Part shown: one piece after another, positions 1 through 59,873 of the stretch
Layout: each line of letters begins with the position of its first letter
Numbering within the stretch: the stretch's first letter is position 1
Assembly (NCBI GenBank): GCA_951406725.2
Contig: OX597819.1
Span: forward strand, 84,196,001-84,260,000
Direction: 5' to 3'
DNA: 64,000 bases
Source: Octopus vulgaris
Taxonomy: Eukaryota
The notes under the pieces: generated by a model
What the model saw: only the letters and a program-made list of their open reading frames with translations
Databases searched by the model: none
What the model was told of the DNA's origin: nothing
Made by a program: the position numbers and the translations under genes

Positions 1-3000
1 TTCCGTCATATTATCAACTGTACTCACTGTTTCTTTACTAATCGCTGATCTTTCTCTTAAATAATCATATTTTATTTTTATCATCTCTGTGCTATCTTCA
101 AATTTTGTTGCTGTAGTGATAGGTTTCACTGTCTTTGTTTGACTTAGTACTATGAGAGTTCCATTTGTGAAATAATAAAATAGTTTGTGAGATGAAACTG
201 CATCTGTTGAAATAAAAGATTTTTGTGTGACTGTTAAAATGTCAGTTGCTGCTTCAATAATCACATCTATTGTCTTATTATCAATGGGTAAAATATCTGT
301 ATGGAACTGAAACAATTTATAATCCATTGTCACAAATTGGTCTGTTAGTGACTGATGAGATAGTTCTTCCCCCAAAAATGAAGTCAAATTTTTAACTTCT
401 AAAATCAATGTAGTTACATTCGTTTGGATGGTCGGTGGAATGCTGATTTCAATAAAAAGATCCTTTATAGTGCTAATATTTGTTATTTCTGAAGTTTGGG
501 TTGTCATCTCAGTTGTGTGGAGTAAGTGAACAAGATATGGTGTGGAAGTTTTAGTTTTATAAGCTTTTACACATTCAGTTAAACTAATGTTGACTACTGT
601 TACTTTACAATCAAATTGTGTTGTTATTGTAATAGAAGTTGGTTCTATCACTTTTATGCTGATTTCATATGCAGTAACATTCTTTACTTGTGGATATTTG
701 ACAGTTTTACTAATTTTTGGTAATTTTGTATACGTTTCTGTTTCATTAGCTGTGATTTTCATTGCAGCTGCAGATGATATGGTTGGTAAACTACTAGACA
801 TCCAGATTTCATAAAGTTTAGACTGTCTTGCTAGAAATGTTGGTATGATGAGGAATGACACTGTTACTGTCTGAGTATCAGATCTAGTCCTTGAAGAAGT
901 TTCTCTACCGTATATCATGAATCCACCAGTGTCTGAAGCATAATGTTCATGCGATATATTTCTATAAATATTAGTTGACATTGCTATCATGTCTGTGACA
1001 ACATTTATGATATCACTTACAAGTAATAAATCTGTTATTTCCTTACTTTGTGATGGTGTTACTTTTGTTTGGTAACCTACAGATGTAATTTCTGTAATTT
1101 CAAATTCAGTTTTATTTATGAATGTTGGTTGTATTTTAGTGATATTACTTATATCCAATATATCTATCGATAAAGTATACCCCAATTCTTTTCTGATAGC
1201 CTTTTCACTAACTCTTTTGGAGAAAATATAATCAATAAATGGTATACTTGCACTGGAGTCAGTTAAGAGTTTTGTAATGTCAGTGACTGGAAGTGAGAAG
1301 CTTTGTTGGCTGCTATCAGTTGTAACAGTTACCATAATTTCAGTCATAACTAAATATTTTCCCATGACAGTAGCTTGGGAGAGGCTTTTAATATCAATAA
1401 AGTGCTTTGAGCTATCTGATACTAAAAGACTTGAATAAGTGGTTATTGATATTCCTTTATCTTGAATAACAGTTGTATTTATACCATCATCAGAAAAAAG
1501 TTTGAAATGGATGATTTGTGGTATTCTTTTCTGAATGTCAGTAACACCTGTTTTTGTAATTGTTTCAGTCATTTTATATAAAGCAGTTTCATCAGATTTA
1601 TATTCAATAGATTTCATTACAAGAATGGCTTTTTGTGATGTAGTGTACAAGCCATAATCAGCAATAATTAGTGCGCTCTTGATATAATCAGAAGCACCAA
1701 CTAGTGCAACTGTTGTATAATTGTCTTCATATGATTCAGTTAGTTGTTTTTCAGTTATCGTTGACCCAGATAACATTATACCAGAAGTATCTACTCGTAG
1801 AGATTTTACATCACAAGTAGCTTCAATGTGTCTTACATCATAACTAATGAGAGATTTTTGTGTTAAATCAATGATTGTAACTGATGTTGATATCAAATCA
1901 TATTTTGTTCTGTCAGAGACAATTGTTTTGGTTATTGTCTCATCTGTGACAACCATCCTCACTATAGTAGTTTGCCTGGCTACCTTTCCTTCAATAGTAA
2001 TATTTCTGTCTTGTGTATAATCAGTGATGATTGGTCTAATTATGGTCCAGTTAGCAGAAAATAGTCTTACTATAGTATCAGCAGCAACAGTAGTTAATAC
2101 ATTTATTTCTGTATCAGTGGAAGCTGATCCATATATTGTTATACCAGTGGAAACTAATCTGTCTATTACCTCATCAGTGGGAACTGATACTTGCACTACT
2201 TCATCAGTAGACACTGTTTTAAGTGTTGCTGCCTCAGTGGAAACTGATTCAAGAATCTTTTCATCAGTAGAAACTAATTTATATATTACCATGTCAGTGG
2301 AAACTGTTTCAAGTACGGCCTCATCAGTAGAAATTGATTTAGGGAATGTTTCCCTTGTAGAAAGTGAATGTTTCAGCTGTGTTATCCTATCAGAGTGAAT
2401 TGGTACAGGCATTTTCTCCTTTCTAGTAACAGATTGGGATATTATTTCTTTAGTTGTAGATGGTCCATATTTTACTTCAATGACAGCAAGTGTTCCATTT
2501 ATTGTTGTATCAGTAGTAATTGATTCTAACATTTCTTTAGTTGTGTCGACTAGCCAATACACTGTCTGAACAGTAGCAACTGGCCAATCTACTGTTTCAT
2601 TTGTAGTGCCAGTAGTAATTGATCGGGATATTGTCTCATCACTAACAACTGTACTAGACATTGCTCCAACAATTATACCAAGTATTGACTTATCAGCAGC
2701 AAATTCATCAAGTAGTGTTCCATTAGTAACAACTGTGTCAGATGATACCCTATCAGTAGCAAATATGCTAGATACCGATTTGTCAATACTAATTGTTCTA
2801 GACAATGTTTCATCAACAGTGCCAAGTAGTGTCTTATCAATAATGGCTGTGCTAGATAGCATCTCATCAGCAACAGATGTGCCAGGTAGTGTCTCATCAG
2901 TAACAGCTGTGCCAGGTAGTGTGTCATCAGCCACAGCTATGTCATGTAGTGTTTCCTCAGTCACAACTATGCCAGGTAGTGTCTCATCAGTCACAGCTGT

Positions 3001-6000
3001 GCCAGGTAGTATCACATCAGTAACAGCTGTGCCAGGTAGTGTGTCATCAGCCACAGCTATGTCATGTGGTGTTTCCTCAGTCACAACTATGCCAGGTAGT
3101 GTCTCATCAGTCACAGCTGTGCCAGGTAGTATCACATCTGTAACTGCTGTGCCAGATAGTGTCTCATTAGTAACAGCTATGCCATGTAGTGTTTCATCAG
3201 TCACAACTATGCCAGGTAGTGTCTCATCAGTCACAGCTGTGCCAGGTAGTATTACATCAGTCACAGCTGTGTCAGGTAGTGTCTCATTAGTAACAGCTGT
3301 GCCATGTAGTGTCTGATCAGTTACAGCTATGCCAGATAGTGTCTCATCAGTCACAGCTCTACCATGTAGCTTCATATCAGTCACATTTGTGCGAGGTATT
3401 GTCACATTAGTAACAACTGTGCCAGGTTGTATTACATCAGTCACAGCTGTGCCAGACAGCATCACATCAGTAACAACTATTCCAGGCAGTATCTCATCAG
3501 TTACAGTTGTGCCAGGTAGTGTCTCATTAGTTACAGCTGTGCCAGGTAATGTCTCTTCAGTCATAGCTGTACCAGGTAGTATCACATCAGTAACAGCTGT
3601 GCCAAGTAGTGTCTCTGTCACAGCTGTGCCAGATAGTGTCTCATCTGTAACAGCTGTGCCAGGTAGCCACACATCAGTCACAGCTGTGCCAGGTAGTGTC
3701 TCATTAGTTACAGCTGTGCCAGGTAGTGTCTCATCAGTAACGGCTGTGCCAGGTAGTGTCTCATCAGTCACAGCTGTGCCAGGTAGTGTCTCATCAGAAA
3801 CAACTGTGCCAGATAGTGTCTCATCAGTAACAGATATGCCAAGTAGTGTCTCTGTCACAGCTGTGCCAGGTAGCGTCACATCAGTCACAACTGTGCTAGG
3901 TAATGTCTCATTAGTAATAGTTGTGCCAGGTAGTATCTCATCAGTCACAGCTGTGCCAGGTAGTGTCTCATCAGTAACGTCTGTACCAGTTAGTGTCACA
4001 TCAATTTTTCCAGGTAGTATCACATCAGTCATAGCTGTGCTTGGTAGTGTCTCATTAGTAACAGCCTTGCTATGTAGTGTTTCATTAGTCACAGCTGTGC
4101 CAATTAGTACCACATCAGTAACAGCTGTGCCAGTTAGTATCACGTCAGCCACAGCTGTGCTAGGTAGTGTTTCTGTCACAGTTGGGCCAAGTAGTGTCGT
4201 ATTAGTAACAACTGTGCCAGGTAGCATCACATCAGTCACAACTGTGCCAGGTAGTGTCTGACCAGTTACAGCTGCACCAGGCAGCATCACATCAGTAACA
4301 ACTAATCCAGGCAGTATCTCATCAGTAACAGCTGTGCCAGGTAGTGTCTCATCAGAAACAACTGTGCCAGGTAGCATCACATCAGTCATAGCTGTGCTAG
4401 GTAGTGTCTCATTAGTTACAGTTGTGTCATGTAATGTCTCACCAGTAACAGCTGTGCCAGGTAGTATCACATCTGTAACAGCTGTGCCAGGTAGTGTCTC
4501 ATCAGAAACAACTGTGCCAGATAGTGTCTCATCAGTAACAGATATGCCAAGTAGTGTCTCTGTCACAGCTGTGCCAGGTAGTGTCTCATTAGTAACAGCC
4601 TTGCCAGGTAGTGTCTTATCAATCACAGCTATGCCAGGTAGTGTCTCATCTGTAACAGCTGTGCCAGGTAGCATCACATCAGTCACAACTGTACTAGGTA
4701 ATGTCTTATTAGTAACAGCTATGCCAAGTAGCATTACATCAGTCACAGCTGTGCCAGGTAGTGTCCAATTAGTGACAGCTGTGCCAGGTAGTATCTCATC
4801 AATAACAGCTGTGTCACGTAGTGCCTCATTAGTAACAGCTGTACCAGCTAGCATCACATCAGTTACAGCTGTGCTCGGTAGTGTCTCATTAGTAGTAGCT
4901 ATACCAGGTAGTGTCACATTAGTCATGGCTGTGGCACGTAGTATTTCATCAGTAACAACTGTATCATACCTTTTTTCATTAGTAACAACTCTGCTAGTTA
5001 GATTCTCAACAGTACCAAATATGTCAGGTATTATCTCGTCCGTAAGAACTGTACCAGTCCTGGTCTTAATTGATGCAACTGTGCTAGTAATTATCTCATC
5101 TGTTGCAAATGTGCTAGGCATTGTCTCATCTGTAGTAACTATGCCAGATGTTATCTCATCTGTAACAATTCTACCTGGCAATGTCTTACTTGTAGCAGCT
5201 GTACAAGTCATTGTTCTATCTGTAGCTACAAGCCAATCAGATGTTGTGAAAGCAGTAATGGCTGTGCCAAGAATTGTTTTATGAATAACATCTGTGTGAA
5301 GTGCCATCTTATTTGTAGTAACTGCATAACATATTGCTTCCTGAATTGTAGATATTCTAGATATTGCCATTTTCTCATCAGTAGCAACTGTGCTAGCTGT
5401 TACTTCATTAGTAGTAAAACTTCCAAGTGTTGTACCATCTGTAGCATCTGTGCTAAGTATTATTTCATCAGCAGCATCTGTGCCTTGTGTTGTGTCATCA
5501 GGAGCAAGTGTAGAAGCTGCTGTCTCAACAGTAACATCAGTGTGAAATATTGTATCATCAGTAGCAACTGTCCTTTGTATTGTCTCATTTGTGTCACCAA
5601 CACTAGATATCATCTCATCTGTTGTTGCTACACCAGACATTGCCTCATTAATAGTAACTGTACCATAGCTTTTCATATCAGTAGCAAGTGTAATGGGCAT
5701 TGTCTTATAAGCAGCAAGTGTACCAGGTATTGTTTCATTTGTAGCCTCTGTACCTAATGTTATGTCATCTGTAGCTACTGCATCTCGTCCTGTGTAATTA
5801 GTAACAATTTTGGCAGGGAGTGTCTCATCCATAGCAACTGCATCAAGTAGTGTCTCATCTGTGTCATGTGTGCTAGATATTATCTTAACTCTCGTAGGCA
5901 TGCCAGATATTATCTCATTTGTAGCAAGTGTCCCAGGTATTACATCATCTATAGCAGGTATTCCAGGTATTATCTCATCTGTAGCAGATGTACCAAATTT

Positions 6001-9000
6001 TATTCCATCTGTAGTTGATGTACCAACTATTATCTCATCTGTAGCAGATGTGCCAGATATTATCTCATCTGTAGTAGGAGTACTAGATATTATCTTATCT
6101 GTAGCAGGTGCAACAAGTATTATCCCATCTATAGCAGATGGACCAGATATTATCTCATCTGTAGTATGTATGCCAGGTACTATCTCATCTGTTGCAGGTA
6201 TGACAGGTATTGTCTCATCTGCAGCAGGTATGCTAGTTATTATCTCTTTTGTACTAGGTATGCCAGGTATTATCTCACCTGTAGTAGGCATGTCAGGTAT
6301 TATCTCATCTGTAGCCACTGCACCAGGTATTATTTCATCTGTGGCATCTGTGCCAAGTATTATCCCATCTATAGCAACAGTCCCAGATATCATATCAGTA
6401 GCAATTGTCCCAGATATTATCTCATCTATAGCAACTGTGCCAGTTATCATTTCATCAGTAACAACTTCACCTGATATTGTCTGTTTAGTGACAATTTTAT
6501 CAGACATCATCTTATCTATAGCTACTAAACCAGTTATTCTTTCATCCATAGTCACTGTACTATGTATTGTCTCATTAATAACCATTTTACCAGATTTTGT
6601 CTCATCTGTAGAAACTGTGCTAGATATAGTTTGATCAGCAATAACTGTGCTAGTTATTATCATATCTTTAGCAACTGTACCAGGTATTGTCTCATTTGTA
6701 ACAACCATGCCAGATATTGTTTTATTTGAAACAATTGTACTAGAAACAATTGTACCAGGAACAATTGCACCAGGCAATACCAGGTTGTATGTGGCCTCCT
6801 CAGTGGTAACTGTACCATGTATTGTTTCATCAGTAATAACTTTTTTATATTTTGCTTTGACTGTAACATTTCGGCTGTATGTTGTATCCTTTGAAGTGGT
6901 TGAATGAACCATTATTACTTCAGAAGTAACTGATAGATAATCTTTAACTTGACCACTTTCTAACACATAGTCACTAGTGATTAATTTTCTTATGTCTTCA
7001 TCAGTAACATCAGTATCATTAGTTTCAAATGATGTTTGATCAGTCACTACTAATCTATAAATTATACTCTTAGTAGCAAATGGCTTATATATTTTCTTAT
7101 CAATGGCAGTTGACCTGGACTTTGTCTCATTAAATGCAGGTGATCTATATGTGATCTCATACATATCTGTTCCATATAACATGCCATCAATAAATCTATA
7201 TATTACTTTGTCATCAGAAGTAATAACTGGTCCATATTCCTTTTCATCTTTAACAATTGTTCTAAATGTTGATATATAAGTAACCACTGGTCTATAGATT
7301 GTAACATCAGTAACAGTTGATCTGTGGCTTGTAACATCAGTAGCTGCTGGTCTATAGATTGTAATATCAGTAGCAGCTGGTTTATAGATTGTAACATCAG
7401 TAGCATTTGATCTATAGATTGTAACATCAGTAGCATAAGAATCAGCTAGTGTATAGACTGTAACATCAGTAGCAGCTGATATATAGATTGTAACATCAGT
7501 AGCATCTGGCATATAAATTGTAGCATCTGTAGCAGCTGGTTTATATATTGTAACATTAGTTGTAGCAGATCTATAGGTTGTAACATCAGTAACAGCTGGC
7601 CTGTAGATTGAAACATCAGCAGTTACAGGTTTATAGATTGTAATATCAGTAACATTAGTAGCAGCTTGTTTATAGATTGTAACATCAGTAGTAGGTGGTC
7701 TATAAAGAGTTACACCAGTAGTATCTGGTTTGTAGATTGCAATATCACTAGCTGCTGTTCTATATATTGTAACATTAGTAGCATCTGCTTTATAGATTGT
7801 AACATTAGAAGTAGCTGGTCTAGAGATTGTAACATCAGTAGCAGCTGGTCTATAGATGGTAACATCCATAGCAGCTGGTCTATAGATTATAACATCAGTA
7901 GCAGCTGGTCTATATATTGTAACATCAGTAGCATTTGATCTATAGATTGTGACATCAGTAACATCAGTAGCAGCTGGTTTATAGCTTGTAACATTAGTAG
8001 TTGCTTGCCTATAGATAGAAACATCACTGACAGCTGGTGTGTAGATTGAAACATCAGTAATATAAGTAGCTGTTTGTCTATATATTGTAACATCAGTAGT
8101 AGGTGGTCTATAGACGGTAACATCAGTAGTGGATGGTCTGTAGATCGTAACATCAGTAGTATCTGGTCTGTAGATTGTAACATCACTAGCTGTTGGGCTA
8201 TACATTGTAACATCAATAGCATCTGCTTTATAGATTGTAACATCGGTAACATCTGGTTTATAGACTGTAGCATCAATAGCAGCTAGACTATAGATGGTAA
8301 CATCCGTAGCAGCTAGTTTATAGATTGTAACATCAGTAATAGCTGGTGCATATGTTGTAACATCAGTAACATCTGGTCTATAAATTGTAACATCAGAAAA
8401 GACTGGTCTATAGATTCTAACATCACTAGCTGTTGGTCTATAGGCTGTTTCATTAGTAGCAACTGGTGTATAGGTTGTTACAACAGTAGCAGTTTGTCTA
8501 TAGACTGTAACTTGAGTAGCAGTTGGTATATAGATTGTAACATCTGTAGCTACTGGTTTATATACTGTAACATAAGTATCAGCTGGTTTATAGATTGTAA
8601 CATTTGTAACAACTGGTCTATATATTGTAACATCAGTAACAACTGGTTTAGAGATTGTAACATCGGTAGTACTTGGTCTATATATTGTAGCACCAGTAAG
8701 AGCTGGTCTATATATTGTAACATTAGTAACAACTGGTTTAGAGATTGTGACATCGGTAGTACTTTGTCTATATATTGTAGCATCAGTAAGAGCTGGTCTA
8801 TATATTGTAACATCAGTAACAACTGGTTTAGAGATTGTAACATCGGTAGTACTTGGTCTATATATTGTAGCACCAGTAAGAGCTGGTCTATATATTGTAA
8901 CATCAGTAGCAACTGGTCTATATTTAATCAAATTAGTAGCAAGTGGCCCATATACTAATTCATCAATGGTAACTAATCCCTCATCAGAAGCAATTGGTTC

Positions 9001-42000: not shown

Positions 42001-45000
42001 TGAAACTGTAGTTTGAGTTGTAATAAAAGTAATCATACTGTCAAAATAGGTGTTAGAATAAGCTATAAATGAAATCAATAATTGAGTTGTTTTTTTAGTT
42101 TTTGGTAATTTGTAAATTAGTTTTAGTGTAGAAACTTCTAACAATTTATACCATTCAGTTTCAGTATCATCTGTAATAGACTGTTCTTCTTTGATAAAGT
42201 AACTTCTGGTTACTCTGAATAAATCACTGGTGACTGGTTTGTCAGTTTGGTTTTTCAGTTTTGAAACCTCTCCCAATTTCCAAGCTGATGTGGTGGTAAA
42301 ATGCATCCAGGCTGGCATTACATATTTTCCATAACTATATGGTTTTGATGAAATAGAGTCAAGATTTTCTTCTAGTACTTGCTTGGTTGTAACATCAAAT
42401 GAAAGTTGATGTGTCTGAAGTAAATGCCTAGTTTCATGATAGATTGTTTTTTCCTCAAGTATTGTTTGAATTGGGTATATTGTTACTAAAATATCTTTAT
42501 CCATTTTTTGAGAAGGTGTTTCAACTAGTAGGCTGGTTCTTTCTGATATCCCCTGGGATAGATCTGTTGTGAACAAGATATCTTCAGATGTTTCAATGAA
42601 CGATGATCTCATTTGTATGCTAATGCCTTCTGATACCTGTTGGAATGAAGTTGCGGTCAACAGAATATCTTCAGGCGTTTCAAGAATTTGTGGTTTAGTG
42701 AAGAGCTTGGTGCTTTCTGATAGATTTTGAGATGATGATACAGCAAACAGAAATCCTTTAGATGTTTCTTGAGGAGAAAACACCCTTGGTTGACTAACTA
42801 CAGATATTTCTTGCATGACTGTTACCAATAATGTTCTATTTTCTAATAACTTTTGAAATGATGGTGTATATAGTAGATTATTATCAACTATCTCAGGTTT
42901 TGAAAATAAATATTTTATGTGTGAAATATTGTTTGTCTTATTTATTAACCTGTCATCAAAACTAAATCCTGATAAAACAGTAGTTACTTCTTTACCAACT
43001 GGAAACACAAAATGCAGACTTTTTGAAGTAGATTTTTCTTCTAATTTGTACATATATGCAGATATAAAAGCTTTTCCTAATTTCTGTTCATTTGTCCAGT
43101 GAGAAAATGCTGTTATAGAAGCATTCATGAAGTCAGTTGTCATTGTGATTTGGTGCAAAGATGTTATAGTTGAAGGTTGGAATGATCTGTAATAAAAGCT
43201 AGAATCAGTTATGGGTGTAATGGAAAGTTGACTAGGATTAGTCAGAAAAGTTTGTCTTGATATGATCAATTTAATAGGTGTTGAAGATGAAATTTTTAAA
43301 ACCTTTTCATCACTTGGGTCTATAATTGTTTCAATAAATTCCATAGTTGTAGATGTTGTTTCTTTGTCAGATGTAAAGTTTAATTTTGGAAGTCTACTAT
43401 CAGTTCTATTACTTAGCTGAATTGACAGCATATTTGTTGACATGATGTCTCCCACATAGAAGAATGGAATCAATTTAACATTACTGAAGTAGGATACTAT
43501 ATCATAGGATTCACTGTAAGTTGGTTTCACACTTGTTAATGTTTTTTCTGTTTTTGAGATGGGTTGATTATAAAATGTAACGTCAGTGGTCGATTGGATT
43601 ATTGGCAAACTTGAGGTCTTTTCTCTTTGCTTTAATTTCAGTTCAAATGTAACTATATATGAGGCAGTAGCAGTGACGGGAGATAGAGTAATGATTGTTG
43701 GGAGAGGAGTATTGGATAGAGAGGTAATAGGAAATAACTTGAGAGGAGTAAGAGAAACTGAAAATCCATGAAGAGAAGTCTGACTTACTTTTGTAGTATA
43801 AAGATATAAATTTAACCCATACATTTCAGAGAAACTTGCAGTTCTTTGCCATTGTCTTGTTACTTCCCTTAATGTCCATATTTTCATTGGAGTCTGCATT
43901 TCTAACACAGAAGCCATTTGTTCAGAGCTAGTTCTATTTGTAACAGTTGTTACTGACACATATGGTATTCTCCTCATTCTTTTTGTTACTTGCTTAAAAT
44001 AAGTTTTTGGTGAAACTAATGAAGAAAAGTTTAGTTTTGGCATAACAGTCATAGAAATGCCTTTCTGCCAGGAATCTATTGATGTATTTAGAATTGACAT
44101 CTTTGAAGGCACTAAACTAACCAAGTCTGTCATAGATGTTCGATTTGAGAAAAGATGTTTAAGATCTATCTTAATTTTAGTTTTTATAGGCTGCAGGAGA
44201 AATGTAGAGTTAAAAAGCTTGGTATCATAATCAATGTAAGGTGTGAGTGTTTTCTGTGTTGGAATAAAAGGTAAAGTTGTAATCTGAATTTTAACATCTG
44301 ATAAGTTTAGTTGTGGACTGGAATCATACTCCATCTTGGGTGTGCTCAAAAGAGTTAGTTTTGATGATATATTTGTAAAGGGTTGGAAGTACTGTAAATG
44401 AAAGGTTGTTTTGTCTACCTTATAGATGTAAGATTGCTCCCATCTATATTTTGACACAAATGATTTTTCCAAGACATATTGACTACTAAGTGGTTTCATC
44501 ACAGAGGTCACCGAAATAAGAGAAATGTCGGGGGTGATATGCATTGTTATGCTAAAAATCACTCTTTCAGTTGTGATTGATTTATCAGCTAAGTCCAAGG
44601 TAGTTTTTAACGATTTCTTTTGGGCAACAATTGTACTTTCTGTTACGGATTTCTTTGTAATAGATTCTAAAGTAAAAGATTCTGAAATATGAAAAGATAA
44701 ACTTGTATTCTGAACAAAATCTAGAGATTTTCTTATGAACCTTTCATTAGCAACAGTTGGGACTAGAATTAGTGTTTCATTGCTTGTATTTGACATTTGA
44801 TAAATATGTCTTGGTCTATGTGACTGAATCATTTTAGGTGACCCTGTGTTGTATAGTAATACATTCCACATGAATTTGGTGGGTAATTCAGTTATATTTA
44901 CTGAGTCACCAATTAAATATGTTGTTTTGATTTCTGTATTGTGCTTTAACAAAAATTCAGGTATAGCTTTAGTTAATAAATGAGTCGTGTTACTGACTAT

Positions 45001-48000
45001 TAGCATTTTTGATGTTTCTGTAGTCTCTGTTACAATTTCTGTCAATGGTGTTCTGAATATTTGTGAGTCCAGGATTACTTTAGATGTTGATGGCCATACA
45101 AATTCATTTATCTGAGTGTTTATCAAAGTCTTTCTGATATCTATACCTAAATATGTTGTGATGGTCTGTATAGACTTGTTTAAGTAAACTAATGGAGACT
45201 TAGTTTGACTCATACTATCGTAACTTGATGTTTCAAATGTTACTTGGATAATTGACAATGATGGTTCAGCAACTTTTTTGCTCTGAGATGGAACCACACT
45301 TTTAGATATTGTTGTGATTATTAGAATCTTTGGTGTTGTAATATCCCCTTCATGGTAGAAAGGCAAAAATTTAGGCATAAATTTACTTTCTACTGTTGTT
45401 AATTCAGTCCTATAAACATCAATGTCAGCCAAAGCTTTCGTTTTGATGGTTTTAAACATTACCACTGATGGCTTGGTTACATGTAGCATATTGCTAACAT
45501 TTCCTGTACTATAGGTATTTTCTTCCCCTTTTATTATAACAGTACTTGACTCATTCATTTTTATCAATGGTTTTGGTAAAATTTGCTTCTGTTCTACTGT
45601 TGATACAGTTATACTCTCTGTAATGTAAATCAATGATATTTCAGTTTTACTGATAGTCTTTCTATCTAAGGATTTTCTTTCAACTTCTATTCTAGATTTG
45701 GTTGCTTTTTTAACCTTACTTTCCATTTCTGAGGTTAACTGTGGTGCTAAAGAACTCTCTGGAGCCCTACTAAACAAGAACATACTTCCAGTTGTTTCCT
45801 TTAGTGATTCCTGGGACTTAGATTTCATTGGTATTTCTCGAGATGTAGTTTTAGTAAGTGGGATTCTTGTTGTTATTGCTTCATCACTGGTTTGCTTAAC
45901 CGGTTCACTTAATTTCCAGGTTTGTGTAAAGTGATCATGTGTTGTTATTTGTATTTTTCCTTCTGTCATGAATTTAATGGGTACTTTAGGTGTTAAAGAT
46001 TGCTGTATCCATGCAACCCAGTAATTTTCAGTTTGGTCATATTGCAGTTCATTTATAGTCTTATTATTAAACCAAATATCTACAGTTATAAATGGCTGTT
46101 TTGCTAGAGTGCTATTTTCTTTGAAAGGAAGCAAAACAGCCTCAGATATGTTTTTATTTTCCAAAACCAGTGCTGAAATATTATGGTCACTATCAATGTG
46201 TAATATCTCAAAGCGAATTGTAACTGCCATTTGTGTTTTGGCAGTGCCCTGCAAAACAGCTACATCTAATAATGCTGTATCTATTTTCTCACTCACTTCA
46301 GTTGGTAGTATTCTTGTAGTAATTTCACTAATTTTCTTCTGAATTTCAGACATAGGCAGTTCTGTTCCTTTGCGTTGAGATTTTGTTGTTTCGATTACAT
46401 CAGTATGAAATGTTTCCATTGTCCCTTTCATGTGTATATTTAATTGATTACTAGTACTAAGTTGAAGGAATTGTTTCAAATTACTTTCATTTTTCATTTT
46501 AAACACATCTAGACTTCTATCAAATAACGCACTGGTACTCGTAGCTAATAAGGAATCAAAATATTCTGAAGTACGGAGAACAACAAGAGCCATTTCAGAT
46601 AATTCTGTTGTTGCATCATACATCTGTTGTACTGTAATTGTTAATTCTTCCACATGAATGACTCTGTCTGTAGTTGCAGACAATTTTACTTCAGATGCAG
46701 TGATACTTGTTATATTTGGGAATACTGTACTTGATACATCTACTAATTCAAATGTTGCATTAGTTATCACAGCTTGTTTAATTATGTGCAATAATTTACT
46801 TACCTGTGATATCTTTTGAGCAGTAGTCAACATAGTTGTATTCAGTACATTTAATTGAAACATATTATGTCTAATTTTAGGTATCATCGTTGTGAAAACT
46901 TTACTTTCATTTGAAGCTATGTTAAATAAAAACATTTCAAATGATGTTTGGTATATTGTTTCTGGTGTAGCTAAAAGTGACTGCATGTCATTGCTAGCTG
47001 ATGTAATAATAAAAGACCCCTTTGATGTGCTGTTTGAAACAACAGCTAGAGTAAATAAAGTTGTATGAAGTTTTTCCAATAAATCAAATGTTATTTTATC
47101 TTGGATTGTCTTAGTGTGTTGTGTTGATAAATGAGAAATGTTTGTCCTAATGCTTAAAGTAATTTCACTGCTCATTTTACGACTGGTAGTTCTTGTCATT
47201 GGTTCTTTTGTTGCTATTGGCTTCTTTGTCTTTGCCTCCATGGCTGAACTGCCATTTATTAATATATAAATTGATGAAGCAGGTGTAACTTCTCCTCTTT
47301 CCTTTTTAAAAGAAACACATGTTTCATCTTTTGATGCAGTAGTTTTTGTCATATTTGTAGATCTGGCAAGTGTAGTCAAAGAATATAATATCTTTCTCTT
47401 TGTATATTCTTTTAGTTGATACTGAGATTTGAATACAGAGATTAATGGTGTTTGGGTAACTAGAAGTGGTTGCCATGTCCCAAGTTTAGTTTCAAACAGC
47501 TCAAATAATTTCGATGTTGCAAAATCTCTTATTGGTTTAGATACATTTTGTGGCATTTTTGATTGTCCAGTAAATATTTTACCCAAATCGCTTCTACCAT
47601 GTTTACTAAACTCCAATTCTCTGTAAGTGCTTTCATATGATGGTAGGGTTAAAAGAGAACTGCTTGAAATATTTTCTTTATGTGAAGATATTTTAGGTGT
47701 TATAGTATGAAGAAAAGAAGCATTCTTAATTATAACTCCATGTTCTTTTGTCACATAACCTATAACTTTTAATTGTTTTACTGTGTCATTATCATAAAAA
47801 TCAATAATATCAATAAACCTGCCTGGTGTGCTTGTTTGATATGGATAAAAAGTTTCACTTATATCTCTTTTCTTAAAATACCTTCTTGTTGGTTTTGTAT
47901 GATCCAACATTGCTTTCATTTCACTTCTAATCAAACTCTTTGTAATACCATCAGTTGTTACATCTAGCCATTTAATAGGTTTGGATTGCATTATATCTGT

Positions 48001-51000
48001 AGATGGCTTCACTCTTTGTTGACTTATTAAACTTCTTCTGTATTTATCAAATTTAGTTGAGAAATCATGCATGTATGGTTCAGATTGTAATTCAAATTTT
48101 ATTTTTTGATACAAGGGACTTGACTGTACTTCTGAGAAGGTTTTAGTTTTAAAACTAGTTTCTTGGCTGAGTAGTTTTAAAAATGGAAAATATATTTTAG
48201 ACTGATTTTCAGTATGTAATGTTCTTGGTGTTATTTTATCCTCTTTGTCATATTTTGGCTTATCAGAAGTTTTTTGAAATGCATCAGGTTTCCATAATGT
48301 TTCGGTTGATGTACCTTTTGGTAAAGAAGATGATACTGTATCTTCTACATCTGTTGAAGTTTCTGAAGTTAAGGTTTCACTCATAAATTCACTCAGCACT
48401 GGCGGGCTTGCAAATGGTAAAAACAACAGTGTATTTTCCAATATAAATGTTACATCTGTTGTTCCCTCAAGACCATGCTCTTCATATAATTCTGTTGAGT
48501 CTAATTTGTGTTTCTTTTCAGCTGTTGAAATACTGAATTTAGTTATATTTGATATTTCCAAACTCAAAGAAGAAATTAACTCATTTTGTGGACTGCTTTT
48601 TGAAGGAACAAGCCTGTGCAGATATCTATTCACATCAAATGAGCTGACTGTTGGAACTAACCTCTCAGTAAATCCACTCACATTATCATGTTTACCTATA
48701 AAAAGAACTAAGCCTTCAGAATGTTGACTTACACTTTGTGATGTGTAAGTAGAAAGAATTAATCCTTCACTGTATCTGCTTTTGTTTCCCTGTAATCTTC
48801 CATGGGTGATATCAATGGTATTAAATGTAGTAATATCTATCATTTTAGATTTAATTTTATGTACTCCATCAAATTTTCTTGGCTTTATAGTCTCTATAGT
48901 AACTGATGGCATCCAAAAACTAGATACAAAATCAGTATGAGACACATGTTTTTCCTTTCTTGTAAAAAAGGCTTTTGATAACTGTGTAGTTTCTGGTGTT
49001 TTTCTAAAATATTCTTCAATGGGAGAAATAACAATACTTGTCAAATATCTTTGTTGGGTAGAACTGAAATCTGAGCTCAGATGGTCTGCAGAATGATATC
49101 CTGGAGCCAATAAAGACATCGGTGTTAAGATTTCCATATCTCTGTTAGTTAACTGAGACATCTGCTTAAAATGTTCAGATAACTTTTTTTTATGAAGCAT
49201 TTCATAACCAGACATCTCCAGCATTGAATAAAAAGGATCAGTGGTCTCTGTAGTTGTTACTGATGTTTCAGAAAAAGCAAATATATTTTCTGTAAGAGTG
49301 CTACTAATCATTTCATTTAGTATAGTCAGGGAAGTAACAGTGTCGACTTCTGAAAGTTCTTTTGCTGTTAGCTGAATGATTTCATTCATAGTTGTACCAA
49401 ACAACTTAGTAGGGTTTGTTGACTGAATGGGAATAACTGTTGGCTTGCTTTTATCAATATCTGTTTTAATATTTGTGGAAGAAATTAATAGTGTAGGTGA
49501 CACTGTTGAAAAAAATGTAGGGTATGAAACTACTATATCTAGTAACATTGTCACATTGTATCTCCAAGTTAACTTCCAGCTTTCTCTTTCTGTTGTGAAT
49601 GTTGATAAATCATTTAAAAAATCTTTACCAACTCTAAACATTAAGGTTTTGATAGTTCCTAATTGGAGAGACGTTTCTAATGTTTGTATATCCATTATTC
49701 TCATAACTGTAGCAGTTATTCTTTTATCAGTACCATTATCAGCCAAGATTTGTGTTCTTTTCCACCAAATATCATCTCGTCTAGTTTGTGTTGTAGACTG
49801 CTCAGTTATAAATTTTGAAGTAAAAGTCTTATGCCATGGTAAATATATTGTAATTGTTTTCTGTTTCTGAAAAGTTAATGGTGACTGAAAATAGGTTAGT
49901 GGTTTCATTGCTGTTATATATCCTTGGGGATCTGTCCCAGTCTTTTCGTTTGTAATAACCAATCCATCTCTATCAACTTGTGGAACTGTAACTGCACTCA
50001 TAATAACAGCTGATTTTACAGTTACATCAGTCTGTAGAACACTAATGATCTCCCTAACATCATCAACAGCATCCTTACCAAAAACTGGTTCTTCCTTGTC
50101 TATTTGTGGAATTTTAACAGTTATTTTAGTATTAGTAGATGCATCCTTTTCTGTGACTTTAATTAAAATTGTAGTAATCACTGATTTAGTTGTGTTACTT
50201 GGCAAAACTACAGATGTACCCATAGGAACTGATGTAGATTCTTCAATAACAACTTGTGACACAGTAATAAAATCTCTAAAACTAATTGGTCCATCAGTAT
50301 CAACAGGAGGTACTTTGACAGCATATCTGGGATCAAATGATCTGCCACTAACTACTTCCAAAATAAAGGCAGGACCTCTAGTTGGAAGTGATGTACTTTG
50401 TTGAACTGACCCAGCTATATGTGGAACAGTAACACCATCCTTAGAAATCATTATAACAGGATACCAAACAACAGAAATATATCTGTCTATGGATGATTTA
50501 TCTCTAGTAATGTAAGGAATGGTAACCGTGTCCTTTGTAACATCTGATTCGTCAACATCCACAGCATCTTCCAATTGATCAGTATGCATGCTATAAGAAA
50601 CCTTGGTTACAAATGATTTATACATGTCAATTTCTGCTGGTGTAACACTGTCCTGAACTAAAGTTGATCCACCAAAGTATCTGTGTGAAACAGAACTAGT
50701 TACAACAGCATCACTAACAATATCTGATCCATAAATTTGTGGGTCTGAAACATTATATCTAGCAACAAGAAACTCATTTTTTACTCTTCCTGATTTAGTA
50801 ACAGCCATATCAGTTTGTTTAAAGATAACAGGTATTCTAGTAAGAAATGAAGTGTATACATCTACTTGTGGATACTGGACAGTATGTATAGCAACAGCCA
50901 ATTCATCTTGACCAATCTTCACTACAGCATCTGCAGTAGTACTAAGACCCTCTGTATTGCTTAGTAAAACAGTAACTGCATCCATGATATTAAATGATTT

Positions 51001-54000
51001 CTCAGGTTTTAGAACTGTAACAATGACACTAGTACCAGCAAGATCAATTTGTGGAATAGTAACAAAATCCTTGACTATAATCATCCCATCGATGTTAATT
51101 TGTTGAACAGATGTAATGTTAGGAGCAACAATATATCCATCACTAGTAATTCTTGTTGGAGTAGCTTCATCCATTGGGATATCTAATCTGGAAATATCAA
51201 TATTTGGAACTGTATATGCAGCTTTAGTAATAAATGATCCATTTAAATCAACTTGTACTGTAATAACTTTCTTTGTAGTAATAGATACATAACCATCAAT
51301 TACTAAATCTTTAGTAATAATTGATCCATTTCTCAGTAATTGTGTAGCTGTGACAAAATCTCTAACAACCATAGTATCTGCATCCTTTTCCAACAGTGTA
51401 ACATTAATAGCTAATCTTTCTAAAATTTTGGGAAATGCACTTGCATCAGTAACAAAAACTGAATCGTTACTATCATATTTTAGAGTTGTACCAAAATCTA
51501 AGGCAATCTCTGGTTTTGTTCTGCCTAGTTGTAGATCAATATGTAAATACTTAGTGATACTTGATTCATCAATGCCTTTTGATGAAACTGAAGCAATATC
51601 TCTAGGAAAGCTGTCCTTAAAAATAAAGGAGTCAACTGTATGTATTTGTGGAACTTTGGACACATTACTGGCAACAACAATAGTTTTGGAAACAGTGGAT
51701 CCATTTGTATGTATTTGTTGAGATGTGATCATATCTCTAGTAACAATGTCCTTAGTAAAAATAGAATCGTCTATATGTATTTGCGAATCCGTAACAGTCT
51801 TCCAAGTAACAACACTCACAGGACCAAGAATGCTATCTATGTGTATCTGTGGAACTGTAACAGTCTCCCTAGTATCAACTGTATTCTTATTAGTAGTTGA
51901 CACTTTTATATGTATTTGGGAAATTGTGATGTCCCTCACAACAAATGATTGATCTGAATGTGCTTGTAGAACTTCATCCCTAGTAACAATAAAATCCTCA
52001 GAAAAAATTGATCCACTTGTGTATACTTGTGAAACTACGATGTTATCCCTATCAAAAATAACATAACTAGCAGAAATTGATCCACCTATATGTATTTGGG
52101 GAGCTGTCACAACTTTCTTAGCAACAGCAGTTATATTACTTCTGAACAGTGAGATTGTTGTTGCAAAAGAATAAGAATGTAATTCCTCTAAAAGCACATG
52201 TGTAGTATTTCTTGAAATGGTTGCTTCTGTCACATCTTTATGCTGAATGATAATTTCTGTTAATCTTCCAGTCCTTACATATTTTAATGATCTAGTTGAC
52301 AAATTTCTTGTTTGTAAAGTCAGAGTTCTCTCAAATGTTATTGTTGTAGAACTGAAAAGATCGCTTGATTTTTCTTCGCTAATTCTTGGAATTTTCAAAA
52401 TTTCAAATCCACGTTTATCCTCTACTTCAGTTTTATATTTTAGCATCCTTTGTTGTGTGATAAATTCCAACTCTATTGTATCAACACCAGAGTCAATGTA
52501 ATCTCTGCTTTCAGGAGGCATAATTGATATCCTTTCTTGAAAAGTAGTAAATGGGACTGACATTTCTTTTAGTGAGCCTGTTTCTCTTGCTTCATATATC
52601 TCCTTGTCATAAGTATATGTCAGATCTATAAAAGTAACTTCTTGGTCAAAATACTGTACATTAGATTGGAATAAAATAGGGGTTGCAGTTTCTTCTGGTA
52701 GAGAATAGGCAGGTAATATTGGCTTATGGAAAATTAACTTTCTATCATCATTTAAACTTTTCTTGTCAAATTCTGCTCCTGACAAAGCCAAAATTAAATT
52801 TGGATCATCATGAATAGTTTTGGATTTTAAACCAATTTGTTTTGATTCATCATCACTTTTGGTAATTTGTCTCAATCGTTCTACTGAAGTTGATCTTTCA
52901 TGTTTTGCTGTAATCAAAGACTCATTTAATGGAACCATTGGTTCTGTTATATCTAACCAAGGAACAAAAATCTCATATGTGTTTAAGTTATAGTTCAAGC
53001 CTACATCTTGACCAACATTTCCTCCAAGAACATATTTAATATGAACTGATCCAGGAGAAAGTAATTTTTTGCTTGCGTTGATATATAGTAAATCTGTATC
53101 TCCTGAAGTGAAACCTTTGTCAGAACTCTGTGAGACATCTGATAAAGTAAATTCTTTAATTAACTGTCTTGCTTTTTTTGTCGATATTTTCTCAGTTACT
53201 CTTCTAGAGATCTTGTCCCAAAACTGTTGATCTAGAATGTGCGTTGTGCTCATCAGCAGTGGAATCTTTGGACTGCCTATACTAAGAAATACAGACTGAG
53301 ATGTACTTTTCTCAATAAACCATACAGTTGGTATAAAGTGTGATTTATGTAGCTTCTCTCTGGTAATTGGTGTAGTTATCTGATCAGATAAGAAAGATGG
53401 TGTTAAAAATGTATAAAAATATTTTGGTGTTAGCTGATATTTTACATGTGTTTTTACTTTTTCAAACAATGTATATTGAAGAATTACTTGTGTTGTTATC
53501 ATTATCTGTTCCCCACTAAATAACTTTCTTTTTGTTGACTTTGAAAGCATTTCATATATTTTTACTTTACTACCATCTCTTTGTTCTGTAGTTTGGTTAA
53601 TTTCTGTCATGAATGATAGGCTTTTAAACAAGTCATCAACTGATTTGGTTTGGTCTAAAGCAACTGTTACAAATTTCTCACCTGGTTTTACTAATGTTTC
53701 TAGTGATTTAGACACATTTAGTTTCAATAACTCCCACCAAGTAGGTGTAGCTTGATATGCTTTTGGGGCTTTTGATGTACTCTCAATACTTCTAAATGTC
53801 TGAAGTAGTCCTAATAAATACTTTTTGAATATAAATGATGAATCCATGGTAGTTGTGGAATAGGGCTCCTGCTTTGATAGGGATATTTTCACAGTAGTAT
53901 AATAACTTTTTAAAGAACTCAAATCTTTTGAAGGAATACTTTTACTTTGATTATTTTGATATAATTGAGACTGGATCCTAAGATGCAAATTAGAGAATGT

Positions 54001-57000
54001 TGTTCCTTCAGTATAGGAGATATTAGGAAATAATCTCATACTTTCACCTAATTTAACTAATTTGGTTATCACCAAAGTTGTTTTTTCTGGATACAGAATA
54101 TCCAGACTAAAATTAGATGTAATTTTTGTAGGTATATTATGTGGAATGATTGATAATGTTTTTGATGTAACCATGTAAGATTGTGTTCTAACTGGTGATG
54201 ACTTCTCTGATCTTATGAGTTCCAATTTTTTGCTAGTACTATTTATTTTGGAGATATTAGAAGAACTGAATGGTGAATATTGTATTATATTTTGTGATGT
54301 TTTGTATGATTTTAAGTTGCTAGTTTTCACTTCTTGTCTGTTTGTTGTAAGGACTTCTTTAAATATACCTAATACTCTTTCTGTTGTGTTGTATTTTTCA
54401 GCATAAACAGGTAGTGTTGATCTCACTGAAGGGATCAATTCTGTAGAACTATGCCATTGTTTTTGAACGGTATGTTTCAGTGGAATAGAAAATATTGGGC
54501 GTTTCTGACTTATTGTCACTTGTTTAAAAAGTCTGCTACTTACTGTTCTCCTCAAATTGACAGTAGTCACAGGATTAGATAATATAGTTTTTTTTAATAA
54601 AACAGATAGAGTGTGATGTATTTTGAGCATTTTCAGTGTAGTAGATGAAACAGGTGCTGGAGTAGTAAATATTTTAGTCATAAGCTTTTTACAAGGTTTA
54701 GAAGGGAAATGTTTTTTTAAATATTTCTGTTTTATCTTTTTCCGTAAGGACTTTTTTCTGCTTTTCTGTTTTGGCTGCCCTATACTAGATTGTGATCCCT
54801 TTTTCTTTGCTTTATCGATCAACAAAAGTCTTTTTCTTTTATCTTTCAAGGAATATCTCTTTATATACAACCTCTTCCCCTTTTTTAGCCTATGATAAGG
54901 ACATTTTTGCCTTCCTTGTTTCCTTGAAAATTTTGATTTTGCAACAACAAGCTTCTTACGGGGAGTTTTAGATACATAACCTGGTATACAATGTACAAAA
55001 ACATCTATAGTTTTCCCATCTACTGCAAAGCCTCGGCGTGTTATACATTTGAGAGATACAGAGAGTTTTCTCAGATGTTTTTCTGATTGGTCTGATTTAT
55101 TTCCTGTCATTAATATTTCAATTGTTTTACTAGTTACCATTCCTTGGGAGAGTTTTTCATCCACAGAATGGTTATATTTTACAATAGGCAGACAGTTTAA
55201 AGATATATGAAGAAAGTCTTTATATGAAGGAATATTAAGGTCACTAGTACAGTGAAGATTCACTGGTAAGAGTGAGCCATTAGAAGTAGCACTCAATCCA
55301 GGAACACAGTTTAAGTCTATATCTACTTTATCCCCACTGCTATTGCTGCTATTTATTTTTGGAGTGCAATACAAATAAACAATTATATCATCTGGTTTAG
55401 GAGCAACTTTGCCAGGAGAAGAGCAATTTAGTGTTACGGGTATGTTATTTCCATATTTTATAAAATTGGTCTCATGAATACAAACAAGAGAAATTGCAAT
55501 TGACTGGCTGCCTTCATTTCCACCTTTAACTGCTGTGTTTTGTAAAGATAACTCTATTTTGTTTACTTTATTTGAGCCAAATACTTTAGAAATTCTCTTT
55601 TTAGAATTTATAAATTTCTGTAATTTATTTCTTTTCCATGGAAAATGTATTTTTCGCCTGTGCTTAACTTTCTCATCTTCATAATAATCTCTTTGATCTG
55701 AATTAAATTTATCAAATATTTCAGGTATTTTTTTAAGACTGTCGTCTGATCCCTCCTCTTTTTCTCTTTCTTGTGAGCACCTAGTTTCAAACTCCTCATT
55801 ATCAACTTCATCTTCTAATTTTTGGTTTGAAACTATTCTTTGTTTGGCTAGTTTCTTTGGTGATTGGATTTTAAATATTTTTTTTCGTTTTTTTAAGTAT
55901 GATGAATCATCATTCTTTTTTAAATGCAGCTTTTTTCTGTTTCCAAAACTAATATCTCGTTTGATTCTAGAAGTAAATAATTTGTAATTCCTTACTTGTA
56001 TTATGTTTTTGCCAAATAACTTTATGTTATTTGTATTGTTGAGCATTTGTAACACAGATTTTGTCATAAACAGACTGACACTTGGATTCAGGGTACTTGT
56101 TTCACCAGAATTTAATTGAGTAAAAATTATGGAAGCTGTAGACTTAAAAAATAGAGGATGGTTTTGAATATCAAAATGAAATAAATTAGATGAAAGGATG
56201 TAGGGTAGTTGAGAAACTGCAGTTTTTGGTGCATAAATGCCTTTGTTTTTAAAATTCTTTAAACTGAATTTACTATTTACATCTTTTTTTGTTGAGTAGT
56301 TACTTTGGGCTTGAGAAATTATTCTATATTTCAGGTAATGATTTTTAAAATAGAGAATTATATTTGATTTTAATACATAAATTTTAATTTCAGGGATATA
56401 ATTATGAAGAAGTTCAACAGATTTTTCATCAATGAAGTCTGTATTGCTTTTAGCATGGTTTACTATTAATATCACAGAGGATCCCAGAGAACTAAGATAT
56501 TTGCATACCACTTCATCTTTAAATCTATCATCAAATAGTGTTGAAAAAGTACTGTTTTGGGATTTAATCTTACAAATAATTACAAAATGATTTATTTTAT
56601 CATTAGCCTTTTTAAGTAGAAAGTTGTAATTGTCTAAATAAACATAATTTACAAAACCATTCATCCCCTGAGGTTTAAGGAAGTACCATGCAATTTCTGA
56701 AATATTCATAAAAGTATCTTCCATAATAACCAATATTTTAATATTTACAGCTGAATTTTGCTCCACCAATTTTGTAATGTTATACCTATCACAGATTTCC
56801 AAGTTATTATGTAAAAGAAAACAAAATTTAAAGAACTGGTTTAGAAACATATTACTTAAAACATCTACTCTATCCTTAATTGGCAAAAAATAAAATACCC
56901 TTAACTTTTTACTATTAGAAAAGCTACTAATTTTAGAATTATTATGTAAATGTTTTTGCTTTATGATATCAAGAATAAAATTTGAGCTATTACTATGATA

Positions 57001-57498: not shown

Positions 57499-59066
57499 TA
57501 TGATCTCATTAAAACTCAAAAATCATTTTTTTAATAATCTTTGGAACTACAGTTATTAAAATCAAGCTTTTGAGCCTTTTTGCTGTCTTTCCTAATAATA
57601 TATATTACATATAACATTATTTCAAACGATGCTATTTCCAGTTAATATCTACAATAATTAAATATAATTTTTTGATGATAACAATATATGTGAAAGAATG
57701 TTGTAGCTATAAGCAATTATAGATAATGCATACTAAGATATTTTTTACTAAAATCGTTGTCTGAGTTTAACAGGTCATAACAATGTCATACTATACAATT
57801 ACAGTTACACTAAAATTGATTCTCGTTGCTTCTTCCAGCTAGACCTGAAACTTCAAATATTTAGAAGAATAAATAGAAATTATAACATTTTTGTCTTTTC
57901 TAAAAGCATTGATATATCTTAACCCATACTCAATTTACAAAGCAGTTATGGTAAACATATAAGGACATTTATATTAAGAGAGAAAATAAAAGGAAAGATA
58001 ACAACCTCAAAAGTATCAATTCTAATAACAAAAATATATTATTTTAAGAAAACAGAAACATACATCTGAAGATGACATAAAATATCACAATTACAAATTT
58101 TAAAATTCCATGATTATTCTAATTTCATTGGTAGAACATAAATTCAGATATATATAACCAATCTAAAGTTTGTGAATATATTGTATTTTCCAGCATACAA
58201 GTTAAATTTTTCCAATCAAACTTTACAGCCAAAAAAGGTAAGCTAACTTATACACCAAGGTGACTTTGGAGGACCAACAATTCCATGAGAAATGCAGCAG
58301 GACTTGGAAAGATAGTGATGATGTTTGAATGTTTACACCATGTTTGCACTATATGCTATGTCAACTTATATACTGGAAAATACAGTATTCTTTAACATGC
58401 TTCATTCATTTATTGGTTTTATAATTTCATAAGAGTTAGTTTGAGAGGCATTTTGGATGTGATTAAAATGTCAACTACTTCACTACTTCATTACTTCACT
58501 TGCTAGAAAAATATTATCACCTGACTGAATGGTTGATGAACTGATGAATAAACTAACTATAAAACACTTAGTCTAAAATATATCCAAATATAGATATTTC
58601 AGTATCCATGCTAACTTGGAAATTAATTTGAAACAAATTATTTTTTAATAATTTTGCCAACAACATGCCAAATATTTAGTACTGAATAGTAAACATTGAT
58701 CAAACTATTAGCCTAATATTTTGTACTCTTTATCTTTTACTATAAAAAGAAATTTACACAATATGAATATATTCTCTTAATACCACAATTTTTAGTGTAG
58801 TTGAGTCCTCAGAGTCCTTGAAGCAGGATTGAATTCTCAAGCCTCTATAAGTAAAATACTATCTCTGTGTTAAAATATGGCACTCAAGTATAATCAAAGG
58901 AGAATTATCAGCAGCAGCATATTTATGATGACATTTTAAAACTGCTACAGGCTGTATTTGAACCTTAATCTATTTCTTTGATGAAACCTTGTTCTCAAAT
59001 CTTCTAAGGTCTACCTCAAAGACTGGTACATTCTCTCAGAAAATTGTTATTTTTTACTCAGCATAT

Positions 59067-59446
59067 ATCTTTTACTCTTTTATACATTTCAGTCACTTGA
59101 TTGTGGCCATGCTGGAGCACTGCTTTTAGTCGAACAAACCAACACCAGGACTTATGCTGCGTAAGTCTAGTGCTTATTCTACCAGTCTCTTTTGCTAAAC
59201 TGCTAAGTTTCAGTGACATAAACACACCAACATCAGTTGTCAAGCGATCGTGGGGGGACAAACACAGACACAAAGACCTACACACACACATGAATATATA
59301 TACATATATATGCATGACAGGCTTCTTTCAGTTTCCGTCTACCAAATCCACTCACAAAGCTTTGGTTGGCTTGAGGCTATAGTAGGAGACACTTGCCCAA
59401 GGTGCCATGCAGTGGGACTGAACCTGGAACCATATGGTTGGGAAGC
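59067..59446 (-). mobile_element. Mirror copy of the same SINE in the left arm
   Basis: Reverse complement of 60551-60935 with few differences. Confidence 0.75.
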
Positions 59447-59618
59447 ATATCTTTAATGTTTGTTTTTATGTTTGGTTATAATAAAAACAATTTTAGACTA
59501 ATCTGAGGGGTTAGTCTATACTTTTGTGGAATACAAGTTTATTCTTAAACAAGAATATTGTTGACAGTGCCTTCGAAATTTTGGCCTGTTAAGCCATCAT
59601 CAGACTGGCTAAAATTTA

Positions 59619-59621
<3 letters not shown>

Positions 59622-59708
<87 letters not shown>

Positions 59709-59720
59709 CACACACACACA
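59622..59720. repeat. (TA)n microsatellite followed by (CA)n
   Basis: Directly visible. Confidence 0.97.
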
Positions 59721-59727
59721 TATATAG

Positions 59728-59868
59728 AGATGGTTAAGCAACTTTCTTTAAAACCATGTTAATTGAGATTCAGCCTCACTGTGAAGCACCTTGAGCAAGT
59801 TTTTTTATATTATAGCTTGGGATTGACCAATGCCTTTTGAGTGAAAGATGGAAGCTGGATGGAAGTCC
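59728..59868 (+). mobile_element. Diverged 5' half of a related SINE (mirror copy at 60151-60290, minus strand)
   Basis: TGGTTAAG...GATTCAGCCTCACTG...CACCTTGAGCAAGT...TATAGC...GACCAATGCCTT..GAGTG parallels the head of the 60551 element. Confidence 0.55.
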
Positions 59869-59873
59869 AATAA

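Follow-up and report, generated by a model that had tools for sequence, protein, structure and literature searches.

The window analysed here is a stretch of 64,000 nucleotides (C6:84,196,001-84,260,000) from the 2.8-Gb genome of Octopus vulgaris, and most of it is occupied by a single minus-strand reading frame. Translation of the reverse complement of positions 1-57498 yielded 19,166 codons and 0 stops, so the frame described in the initial annotation, running in constant phase from an ATG at 57498 to the window edge, is indeed open; the remaining five frames carry 773-2,310 stops each across the whole window. The splice acceptor proposed near 57474 is likewise present, and 57473 is the first base of the exon that follows it. 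The ATG is either the true start or intronic, and the ORF listing contains no upstream first exon across 146 kb. The features of the window are as follows.

57610-64000, no strand assigned: upstream intron-like DNA, with a high-copy dispersed repeat at ~58.2-59.6 kb, microsatellites and frame-breaking indels in a relative.
57496-57498, minus: in-frame ATG, 24 nt ahead of the acceptor (sequence).
57474-57490, minus: predicted splice acceptor, a pyrimidine tract and CAG with its AG at 57475-57474 (sequence).
1-57473, minus: in-window 55% of the giant exon (open frame and splice signals).
57403-57473, minus: signal-peptide-like stretch, aa 9-32 (hydrophobicity).
55969-57402, minus: basic Asn/Lys/Ile-rich region of ~480 aa (composition; no homologue).
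55957-55968, minus: RIKR, aa 511-514, a predicted cleavage site (motif match).
54964-55506, minus: Cys module, with Cys at aa 673, 692, 711, 731, 750, 769, 818 and 837.
1-54630, minus, in-window extent: Ser/Thr-rich stalk, low in Pro (2-6%) and almost free of Cys, with S+T at 23-33% per 1,000 aa.
35082-35760, minus: 21-nt (7-aa) tandem array of 32.6 copies, with a sequon in most units.
28900-30400 (approximate), minus: degenerate region with 12-aa periodicity (z 10.1 at lag 12).
2599-14001, minus: 10-aa (30-nt) periodic region, with clear arrays at 2819-4962, 5853-6705 and 7287-8922 and degenerate copies elsewhere.

Beyond window position 1 the frame continues to C6 ~84,148,982, giving 34,847 codons from stop to stop, and a donor (ACAG/GTAAGC) located 60 nt ahead of the frame's stop bounds the giant exon. 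The exon thus extends from C6:84,253,473 down to 84,149,041 on the minus strand (104,433 nt, 34,811 codons, phase 1-1), with 46,960 nt lying beyond the window. The initial annotation had proposed a coding exon of more than 57 kb, which is real and unbroken but was understated in size. Over the giant exon the other two frames of the same strand contain 2,753 and 3,453 stops, whereas the coding frame contains 0 in 34,811 codons. From the base composition one stop per 13.6 codons is expected, within the ~12-15 codons estimated earlier, and the probability of such a frame arising by chance over the whole exon has a log10 of about -1156. Within the window, 12.8% of the exon consists of tandem or self-similar DNA, a share that rises to 28.8% over its full length; repeat expansion, which the initial annotation had already discounted, is ruled out as the cause of the openness, since ~71% of the exon is non-repeat DNA. 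The 364 kb examined around the exon contain 0 N letters.

Codon-position bias was detected in all 34 of the 3-kb blocks of the exon (chi2 71-886), as against values of only 3-30 in 6 intron blocks. A segment of 20 kb (39601-59600), which includes 17.9 kb of the 104.4-kb exon, was compared with contigs from four runs. In one relative, C, a single contig spans 39601-58274 and differs by 164 substitutions and 21 gap letters; a second, E, represented by two runs, is about 4-5% diverged from the octopus sequence. The net length changes of five exon-only pieces of relative E are 0, +12, 0, +30 and -27, and one skip measures 48 nt, all of them multiples of 3; in the DNA upstream of the exon, by contrast, 7 of the 9 indels listed are frame-breaking. 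Gaps of 1 nt and 3 nt at 47122-47125 in one run lie inside a piece whose net length keeps the frame, with no compensating change among the indels listed. The listed changes comprise 12 of 38 indels and 40 of 919 substitutions, 39 of the latter being drawn from about 800 in the exon; among these 39, 6 are synonymous, 33 non-synonymous and 0 create a stop (neutral p 0.20). The frame check against relatives that the initial annotation had suggested comes out favourably in these 17.9 kb as regards net length, but the listed changes give no sign of amino-acid constraint in the stalk. A neutral spectrum predicts ~34 stops among 778 changes in the 17.9 kb, roughly half of them on the O. vulgaris branch; 0 are present.

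That the frame is an assembly artefact, or non-coding DNA open by chance, can be considered in the light of these data. In its favour, no RNA datasets matching 47801-57800 were listed, and no confirmed RNA was found over the giant exon. In poly(A) libraries coverage declines ~10 kb from the 3' end (bioRxiv 2024.01.29.577497). Run X23 did yield five contigs (153-274 nt) that are identical to 42694-45980, but their RNA origin is a guess, and since they may be DNA they were left out of the transcription evidence. Moreover, no homologue of the N-terminal 1,191 aa was found outside octopods among 1.84 billion representatives. Against this stand the contigs of two other organisms, independently collinear over 17.9 kb, the 71% of non-repeat sequence, the chance probability given above, and the codon and sequon signals. 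An artefact is largely refuted for the compared 17.9 kb, and for the locus as a whole we regard it as highly improbable.

Downstream of the donor, 16 short exons (53-426 nt) spread over the next 44 kb continue the giant exon in frame to a terminal stop at ~C6 84,104,878. In the resulting 17-exon model an AG precedes 17 of 17 exons and a GT follows all 16 non-terminal ones. The model protein comprises 35,767 aa (4.0 MDa) with a single terminal stop, a minimum that leaves aside any upstream first exon, and the giant exon supplies 97% of the chain. Its parts are ordered as a Ser/Thr stalk, NIDO, an AMOP-like exon, a vWD domain beginning with GDPH (aa 35,163), EGF repeats, a hydrophobic helix with an Arg cluster behind it, and a tail. 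NIDO exceeds the Pfam cut-off at C6:84139786-84140058 (E 2.4e-8), 9 kb past the donor, and reaches E 1e-25 in the O. bimaculoides and Argonauta hians orthologues. VWD is above the cut-off in both of these orthologues, whose exons match the octopus locus, and EGF in an A. hians model; matches to Notch EGF were obtained as well. A 23-residue hydrophobic stretch, followed by the Arg cluster and a ~100-aa tail, is a candidate transmembrane (TM) helix. For AMOP there was no Pfam match in the locus or the orthologue models, and BLASTP of the exon against a paralogue was non-significant. A home-made 3-sequence profile placed it narrowly above 200 of 200 shuffles (10.4 vs 8.8 bits), Atlas returned AMOP as the first match (0.89, 182 shared features; a lead only), and the CPC, QC-Y and CC motifs align; the AMOP identity of the exon between NIDO and vWD is thus weakly indicated.

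No SEA domain was found by Pfam in the window part or in three orthologue models, and the layout of gel-forming mucins (N-terminal vWD assemblies, a C-terminal cystine knot and no TM helix) was not seen. Arrays of Ig or FN3 domains were not found either: Pfam on the 19,166 in-window residues gave only a sub-cut-off Extensin match, and the 15,600 residues beyond the window were inspected by eye. The domain layout speaks for a membrane mucin of MUC4 type, 35,767 aa or more in length. The earlier proposal of a titin-scale surface glycoprotein agrees with this NIDO/AMOP-like/vWD/EGF/TM C-terminus, and past position 1, where it had recommended following the frame, lie the donor as well as the NIDO, vWD, EGF and candidate TM segments.

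At the chain's other end, the hydrophobic 19-mer at aa 14-32 is the second highest of the 34,839-aa frame (mean 2.05) and represents a candidate signal. The RIKR motif, which we take to be a furin-type site, is one of only 2 R-x-K/R-R sites in the whole frame. Cysteines of the Cys module are spaced 19-20 aa apart, each behind an alternating hydrophobic strand-like motif, and the module could be a disulfide-laddered beta module or a site of oligomerisation. Atlas, Pfam and sequence searches of the N-terminus found no family for it. Both the basic region and the Cys module are single copy in the genome. Residues 9-956 had 0 matches among the same 1.84 billion representatives, and Atlas, Pfam and two sequence searches of the N-terminus returned nothing beyond a public fragment of the gene itself. 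Single-sequence folds were unconfident (pLDDT 33 for aa 34-513 and 32 for aa 654-843).

The stalk is mostly non-repetitive and rich in sequons. From aa 1001 onwards S+T amounts to 23-42% per 1,000 aa over the whole exon; with Pro at ~4.5% and hydrophobic residues at 27-40% per block, its composition is unlike that of a classical PTS domain. In 24,007 non-repeat residues, 492 of 669 Asn (74%) lie in N-x-S/T, whereas shuffling gives an expectation of 171 +/- 11 (~26%; maximum 200 in 200 shuffles). At neighbouring offsets after Asn, S/T occurs at 15-27%, against 74% at +2. Sequon enrichment is absent from aa 1-956 (15 of 74 Asn). The same excess is seen in those gaps of the giant exon that no public model covers, and its presence across the exon points to selection acting in the secretory pathway. 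In total the model contains 738 sequons and 9,822 Ser/Thr. Periodicity of 7, 10, 12, 14, 15 or 19 residues was evident in 33 of the 69 windows scanned, the null reaching z 3.5 at most. Beyond the window the exon also contains arrays of 10 kb and 6 kb. The periodic signal fades at array edges, which suggests growth through repeated expansion followed by decay; the stalk probably grew by successive tandem expansions of 7, 10, 12, 14 and 15 residues that have since decayed.

Such regular periods also suit another architecture for the same gene and exon, in which much of the stalk would be a beta-solenoid or fibrous rod of 10- and 15-residue Thr/Val/Ile repeats, not a disordered O-glycan brush. 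The product would then differ in mechanism, acting as a fibre for structure or adhesion (in the egg stalk, the sucker cuticle, or the lining of gut or gland), its chains cross-linked by the Cys module. Low Pro, a hydrophobic content of about one third, the 10/14/15-aa periods among those in 33 of 69 windows and the regular spacing of the Cys module fit a fibre of this kind, whereas the dense sequons throughout and the neutral-looking amino-acid change are unlike a packed core. Identity to Argonauta also falls to 44-46% in the last 600 aa of the exon, compared with 68-89% in the folded domains. We therefore hold a fibrous rod to be possible but rather doubtful. Within that ~600-aa Argonauta stretch 15 of 19 Asn lie in sequons, yet only 4 of 12 positions are common to both species; the final 900 residues of the exon are 91% identical to O. 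bimaculoides. Neutral-looking substitution together with sequon turnover indicates that the sequence drifts whereas length, frame, composition and the density of sequons are preserved. Judged from these alignments, the stalk appears to be selected for length, open frame, composition and sequons, and not for its sequence.

Public annotation divides the gene, as the initial annotation had predicted that pipelines would do. Two O. vulgaris entries, both named 'hypothetical predicted protein', are 100% identical to the frame and have internal Met starts and short non-matching tail ends: CAI9724496.1 (7,276 aa) has Met 957 as its first residue and leaves out four in-frame GT-AG stretches, and a second fragment of 4,617 aa corresponds to residues 11,085-15,685. 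Jointly they cover 11,863 of the 19,166 in-window codons, and they are unlinked to the NIDO part. A search with one of the downstream exons retrieved 2 proteins among 166 candidates, a mucin-4-like protein of O. bimaculoides (97%) and a mucin-like protein of A. hians (76%). The models of these species (1,586-1,739 aa) begin within the giant exon, of which they contain only the last 0.7-1.1 thousand residues, and share the donor, the NIDO exon and the short exons. Identity per exon match is 91-100% for the orthologous C-terminus of O. bimaculoides (XP_014785347.1 / XP_052824421.1) and 68-89% for that of A. hians (GAB1598474.1 / GAB1609470.1). One O. bimaculoides model skips ~980 codons with a 14-aa array (window-equivalent -41,832 to -44,765), a difference that may reflect an assembly gap, a length polymorphism or real splicing. 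The two A. hians models are near-identical and lie on different contigs, and one is without the third EGF exon pair.

These public models bear on whether the exon, even if coding throughout, is ever retained whole in one mRNA. Exitrons, internal acceptors or internal poly(A) sites could instead generate shorter isoforms, with secreted 5' forms and tethered 3' forms, each part of the frame staying open because some isoform uses it. The in-frame GT-AG pairs of public models (four in CAI9724496.1 and the one ~980-codon O. bimaculoides skip) agree with such processing, as does the fact that orthologue models start only 0.7-1.1 thousand residues ahead of the donor; ultra-long exons are, according to PMC11446547, prone to cryptic splicing in human cells. 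The exon also contains 91 AATAAA (101 +/- 10 expected) and 18 strong acceptors (8 +/- 5 expected), as well as 5 AG/GTRAG. Because poly(A) signals are undepleted and strong acceptors somewhat enriched, internal processing remains a live rival. On the other side, one phase is maintained over 104 kb and no intron-like DNA is apparent, runs of 6 or more T occurring at 0.27 per kb in the exon vs 1.31 in introns. The predicted 'introns' of the public model share the S/T signature of their flanks and have 5 of 7, 10 of 11, 23 of 28 and 12 of 17 Asn in sequons. GTRAG donors are depleted in the exon (77 vs 110 +/- 11), and the internal Met starts and non-matching tails of the fragments resemble gene-prediction artefacts. 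On this evidence we consider it unlikely that the exon is only ever used in pieces.

A second, paralogous mucin with NIDO, AMOP-like and vWD domains was observed at C17:51,382,400-51,468,050 on the plus strand, where a Thr/Pro/Glu repeat stretch of ~86 kb (S+T ~45-58%) runs up to a donor at 51,468,050 and is followed by exons for NIDO, the AMOP-like part and GDPH-vWD. About 10 frame changes interrupt this stretch in the assembly, the longest open run being 12,930 codons, and these changes are either assembly error or real. Of the other NIDO/AMOP loci, eight were sampled over 10-70 kb (150 kb at C17), and among them a long Thr-rich frame was seen at C17 alone; the remaining loci may have one beyond the sampled span.

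Taken together, the data make it quite probable that this frame constitutes the mucin (Ser/Thr-rich) exon in an octopod membrane mucin of MUC4 type, and that at least one mRNA, ~107 kb or more in length, contains the exon in its entirety. By analogy with MUC4 biology, the chain would enter the ER through its N-terminal signal and could acquire up to 738 N-glycans together with many O-glycans on its 9,822 Ser/Thr. Cleavage at GDPH (aa 35,163) would yield an outer subunit of ~3.9 MDa and a small membrane subunit, and the product would form a glycocalyx filament, tethered or shed, that measures several micrometres; scaling by mass from the 2.12 um of the 930-kDa MUC4 gives a filament of ~9 um. 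We also lean, with some reserve, towards a broader proposal: that, at 104,433 nt, this is the longest coding exon yet described in an animal, and that it is spliced in one piece into a ~107-kb mRNA encoding a membrane-tethered glycoprotein of 4 MDa and ~9 um; that selection removes stops, frameshifts, cryptic donors and unglycosylated Asn from the stalk, which is mostly unique and drifts neutrally in sequence; and that giant exons are a trait of the octopod NIDO-mucin family, with the ~86-kb stretch on C17 as the second.

None of the six peptides chosen from the C-terminal domain exons was among the listed PSM rows for octopus skin mucus (PMC10138644 supplement), and the two 'mucin-4-like' peptides in that supplement are absent from the AMOP-like exon of our model. 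A placement of the protein in skin mucus is given neither by PMC10138644 nor by the available part of PMC11431876.

The gene organization has clear parallels. As described in PMC2360313 and PMC9080433, in human MUC4 and the mucin-4-like proteins of cnidarians and molluscs an exon of very large size close to the 5' end precedes short exons, which encode NIDO, AMOP, vWD, the GDPH site, EGF repeats, a TM segment and a short tail; the octopus gene shows the same arrangement, with an AMOP-like exon in the AMOP position. MUC4 exon 2 reaches up to 22 kb and consists mostly of a near-perfect 48-bp VNTR, and the longest MUC4 allele measures 27,843 bp (PMC13345508); the octopus exon, in contrast, is 104 kb long and 71% non-repeat. 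It further differs from MUC4 in being Pro-poor and, by prediction, rich in N-glycans, and in having a basic domain and a Cys module at its start. Among human coding exons that of MUC12 is the largest, and the longest predicted MUC12 protein has 23,080 aa (PMC13345508). The octopus exon exceeds this human record, but the initial claim of a more than twofold excess over 22 kb is outdated, since MUC12 reduces the margin to ~1.5-fold. MUC12 is, like the octopus protein, a membrane mucin, but it is SEA-type and built of VNTR, with an exon of at most about 69 kb; unlike the VNTR mucin exons of vertebrates, the octopus giant exon is mostly not repeat DNA. Among other giant proteins, PKZILLA-1 (45,212 aa, ~25% above titin) is encoded by 17 exons and was also fragmented by annotation (bioRxiv 2024.01.29.577497), and the exon counts are 78 for Drosophila Dumpy and 364 for titin. 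These are multi-MDa chains like the octopus mucin, but they consist of folded domains distributed over many exons. A literature search, with most subscription journals outside its reach, retrieved no paper on the octopus gene or on a coding exon of ~104 kb. MUC4-like mucins and large mucin exons are already known; size and a mostly non-repetitive stalk set the octopus exon apart.

If the exon is read out whole, the known size limit of coding exons moves and a cell-surface mucin reaches the size of titin. The locus would then provide a test case for how the spliceosome copes with a 104-kb, A+T-rich exon that contains dozens of poly(A) signals, and for ER handling of a chain with about 740 sequons. 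A near-neutral stalk with strict retention of frame and sequons would make a clean system for studying what selection keeps in a mucin. As the gene is split into unnamed public fragments, proteomic and expression studies of octopus miss it. A search for comparable frames in long-read animal genomes costs little and may turn up further cases.

Several minor observations were made at this and related loci. In the intron behind the giant exon (C6 ~84,145,900-84,146,900) there are broken frame fragments that we take, by eye, to be reverse-transcriptase-like; similar pieces occur upstream at window-equivalent 93 kb and 100-101 kb, and a piece at 96.6-97.5 kb looks transposase-like. Two long frames at C6:134,744,316-134,747,192 (minus), which lie upstream of another NIDO exon, presumably encode, judging by eye, retrotransposon protease, reverse transcriptase and integrase. 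On C11 (73,779,949-73,780,986, minus), 13 kb upstream of an AMOP exon, a single-exon frame of 346 codons has an NPxxY-like motif near its end and looks GPCR-like to us. Finally, a 742-codon frame at C4:94,163,953-94,166,178 (minus) encodes an EGF-like segment and the greater part of a NIDO domain, uninterrupted by the introns of its paralogues, and is possibly a retrocopy or an intron-poor paralogue.
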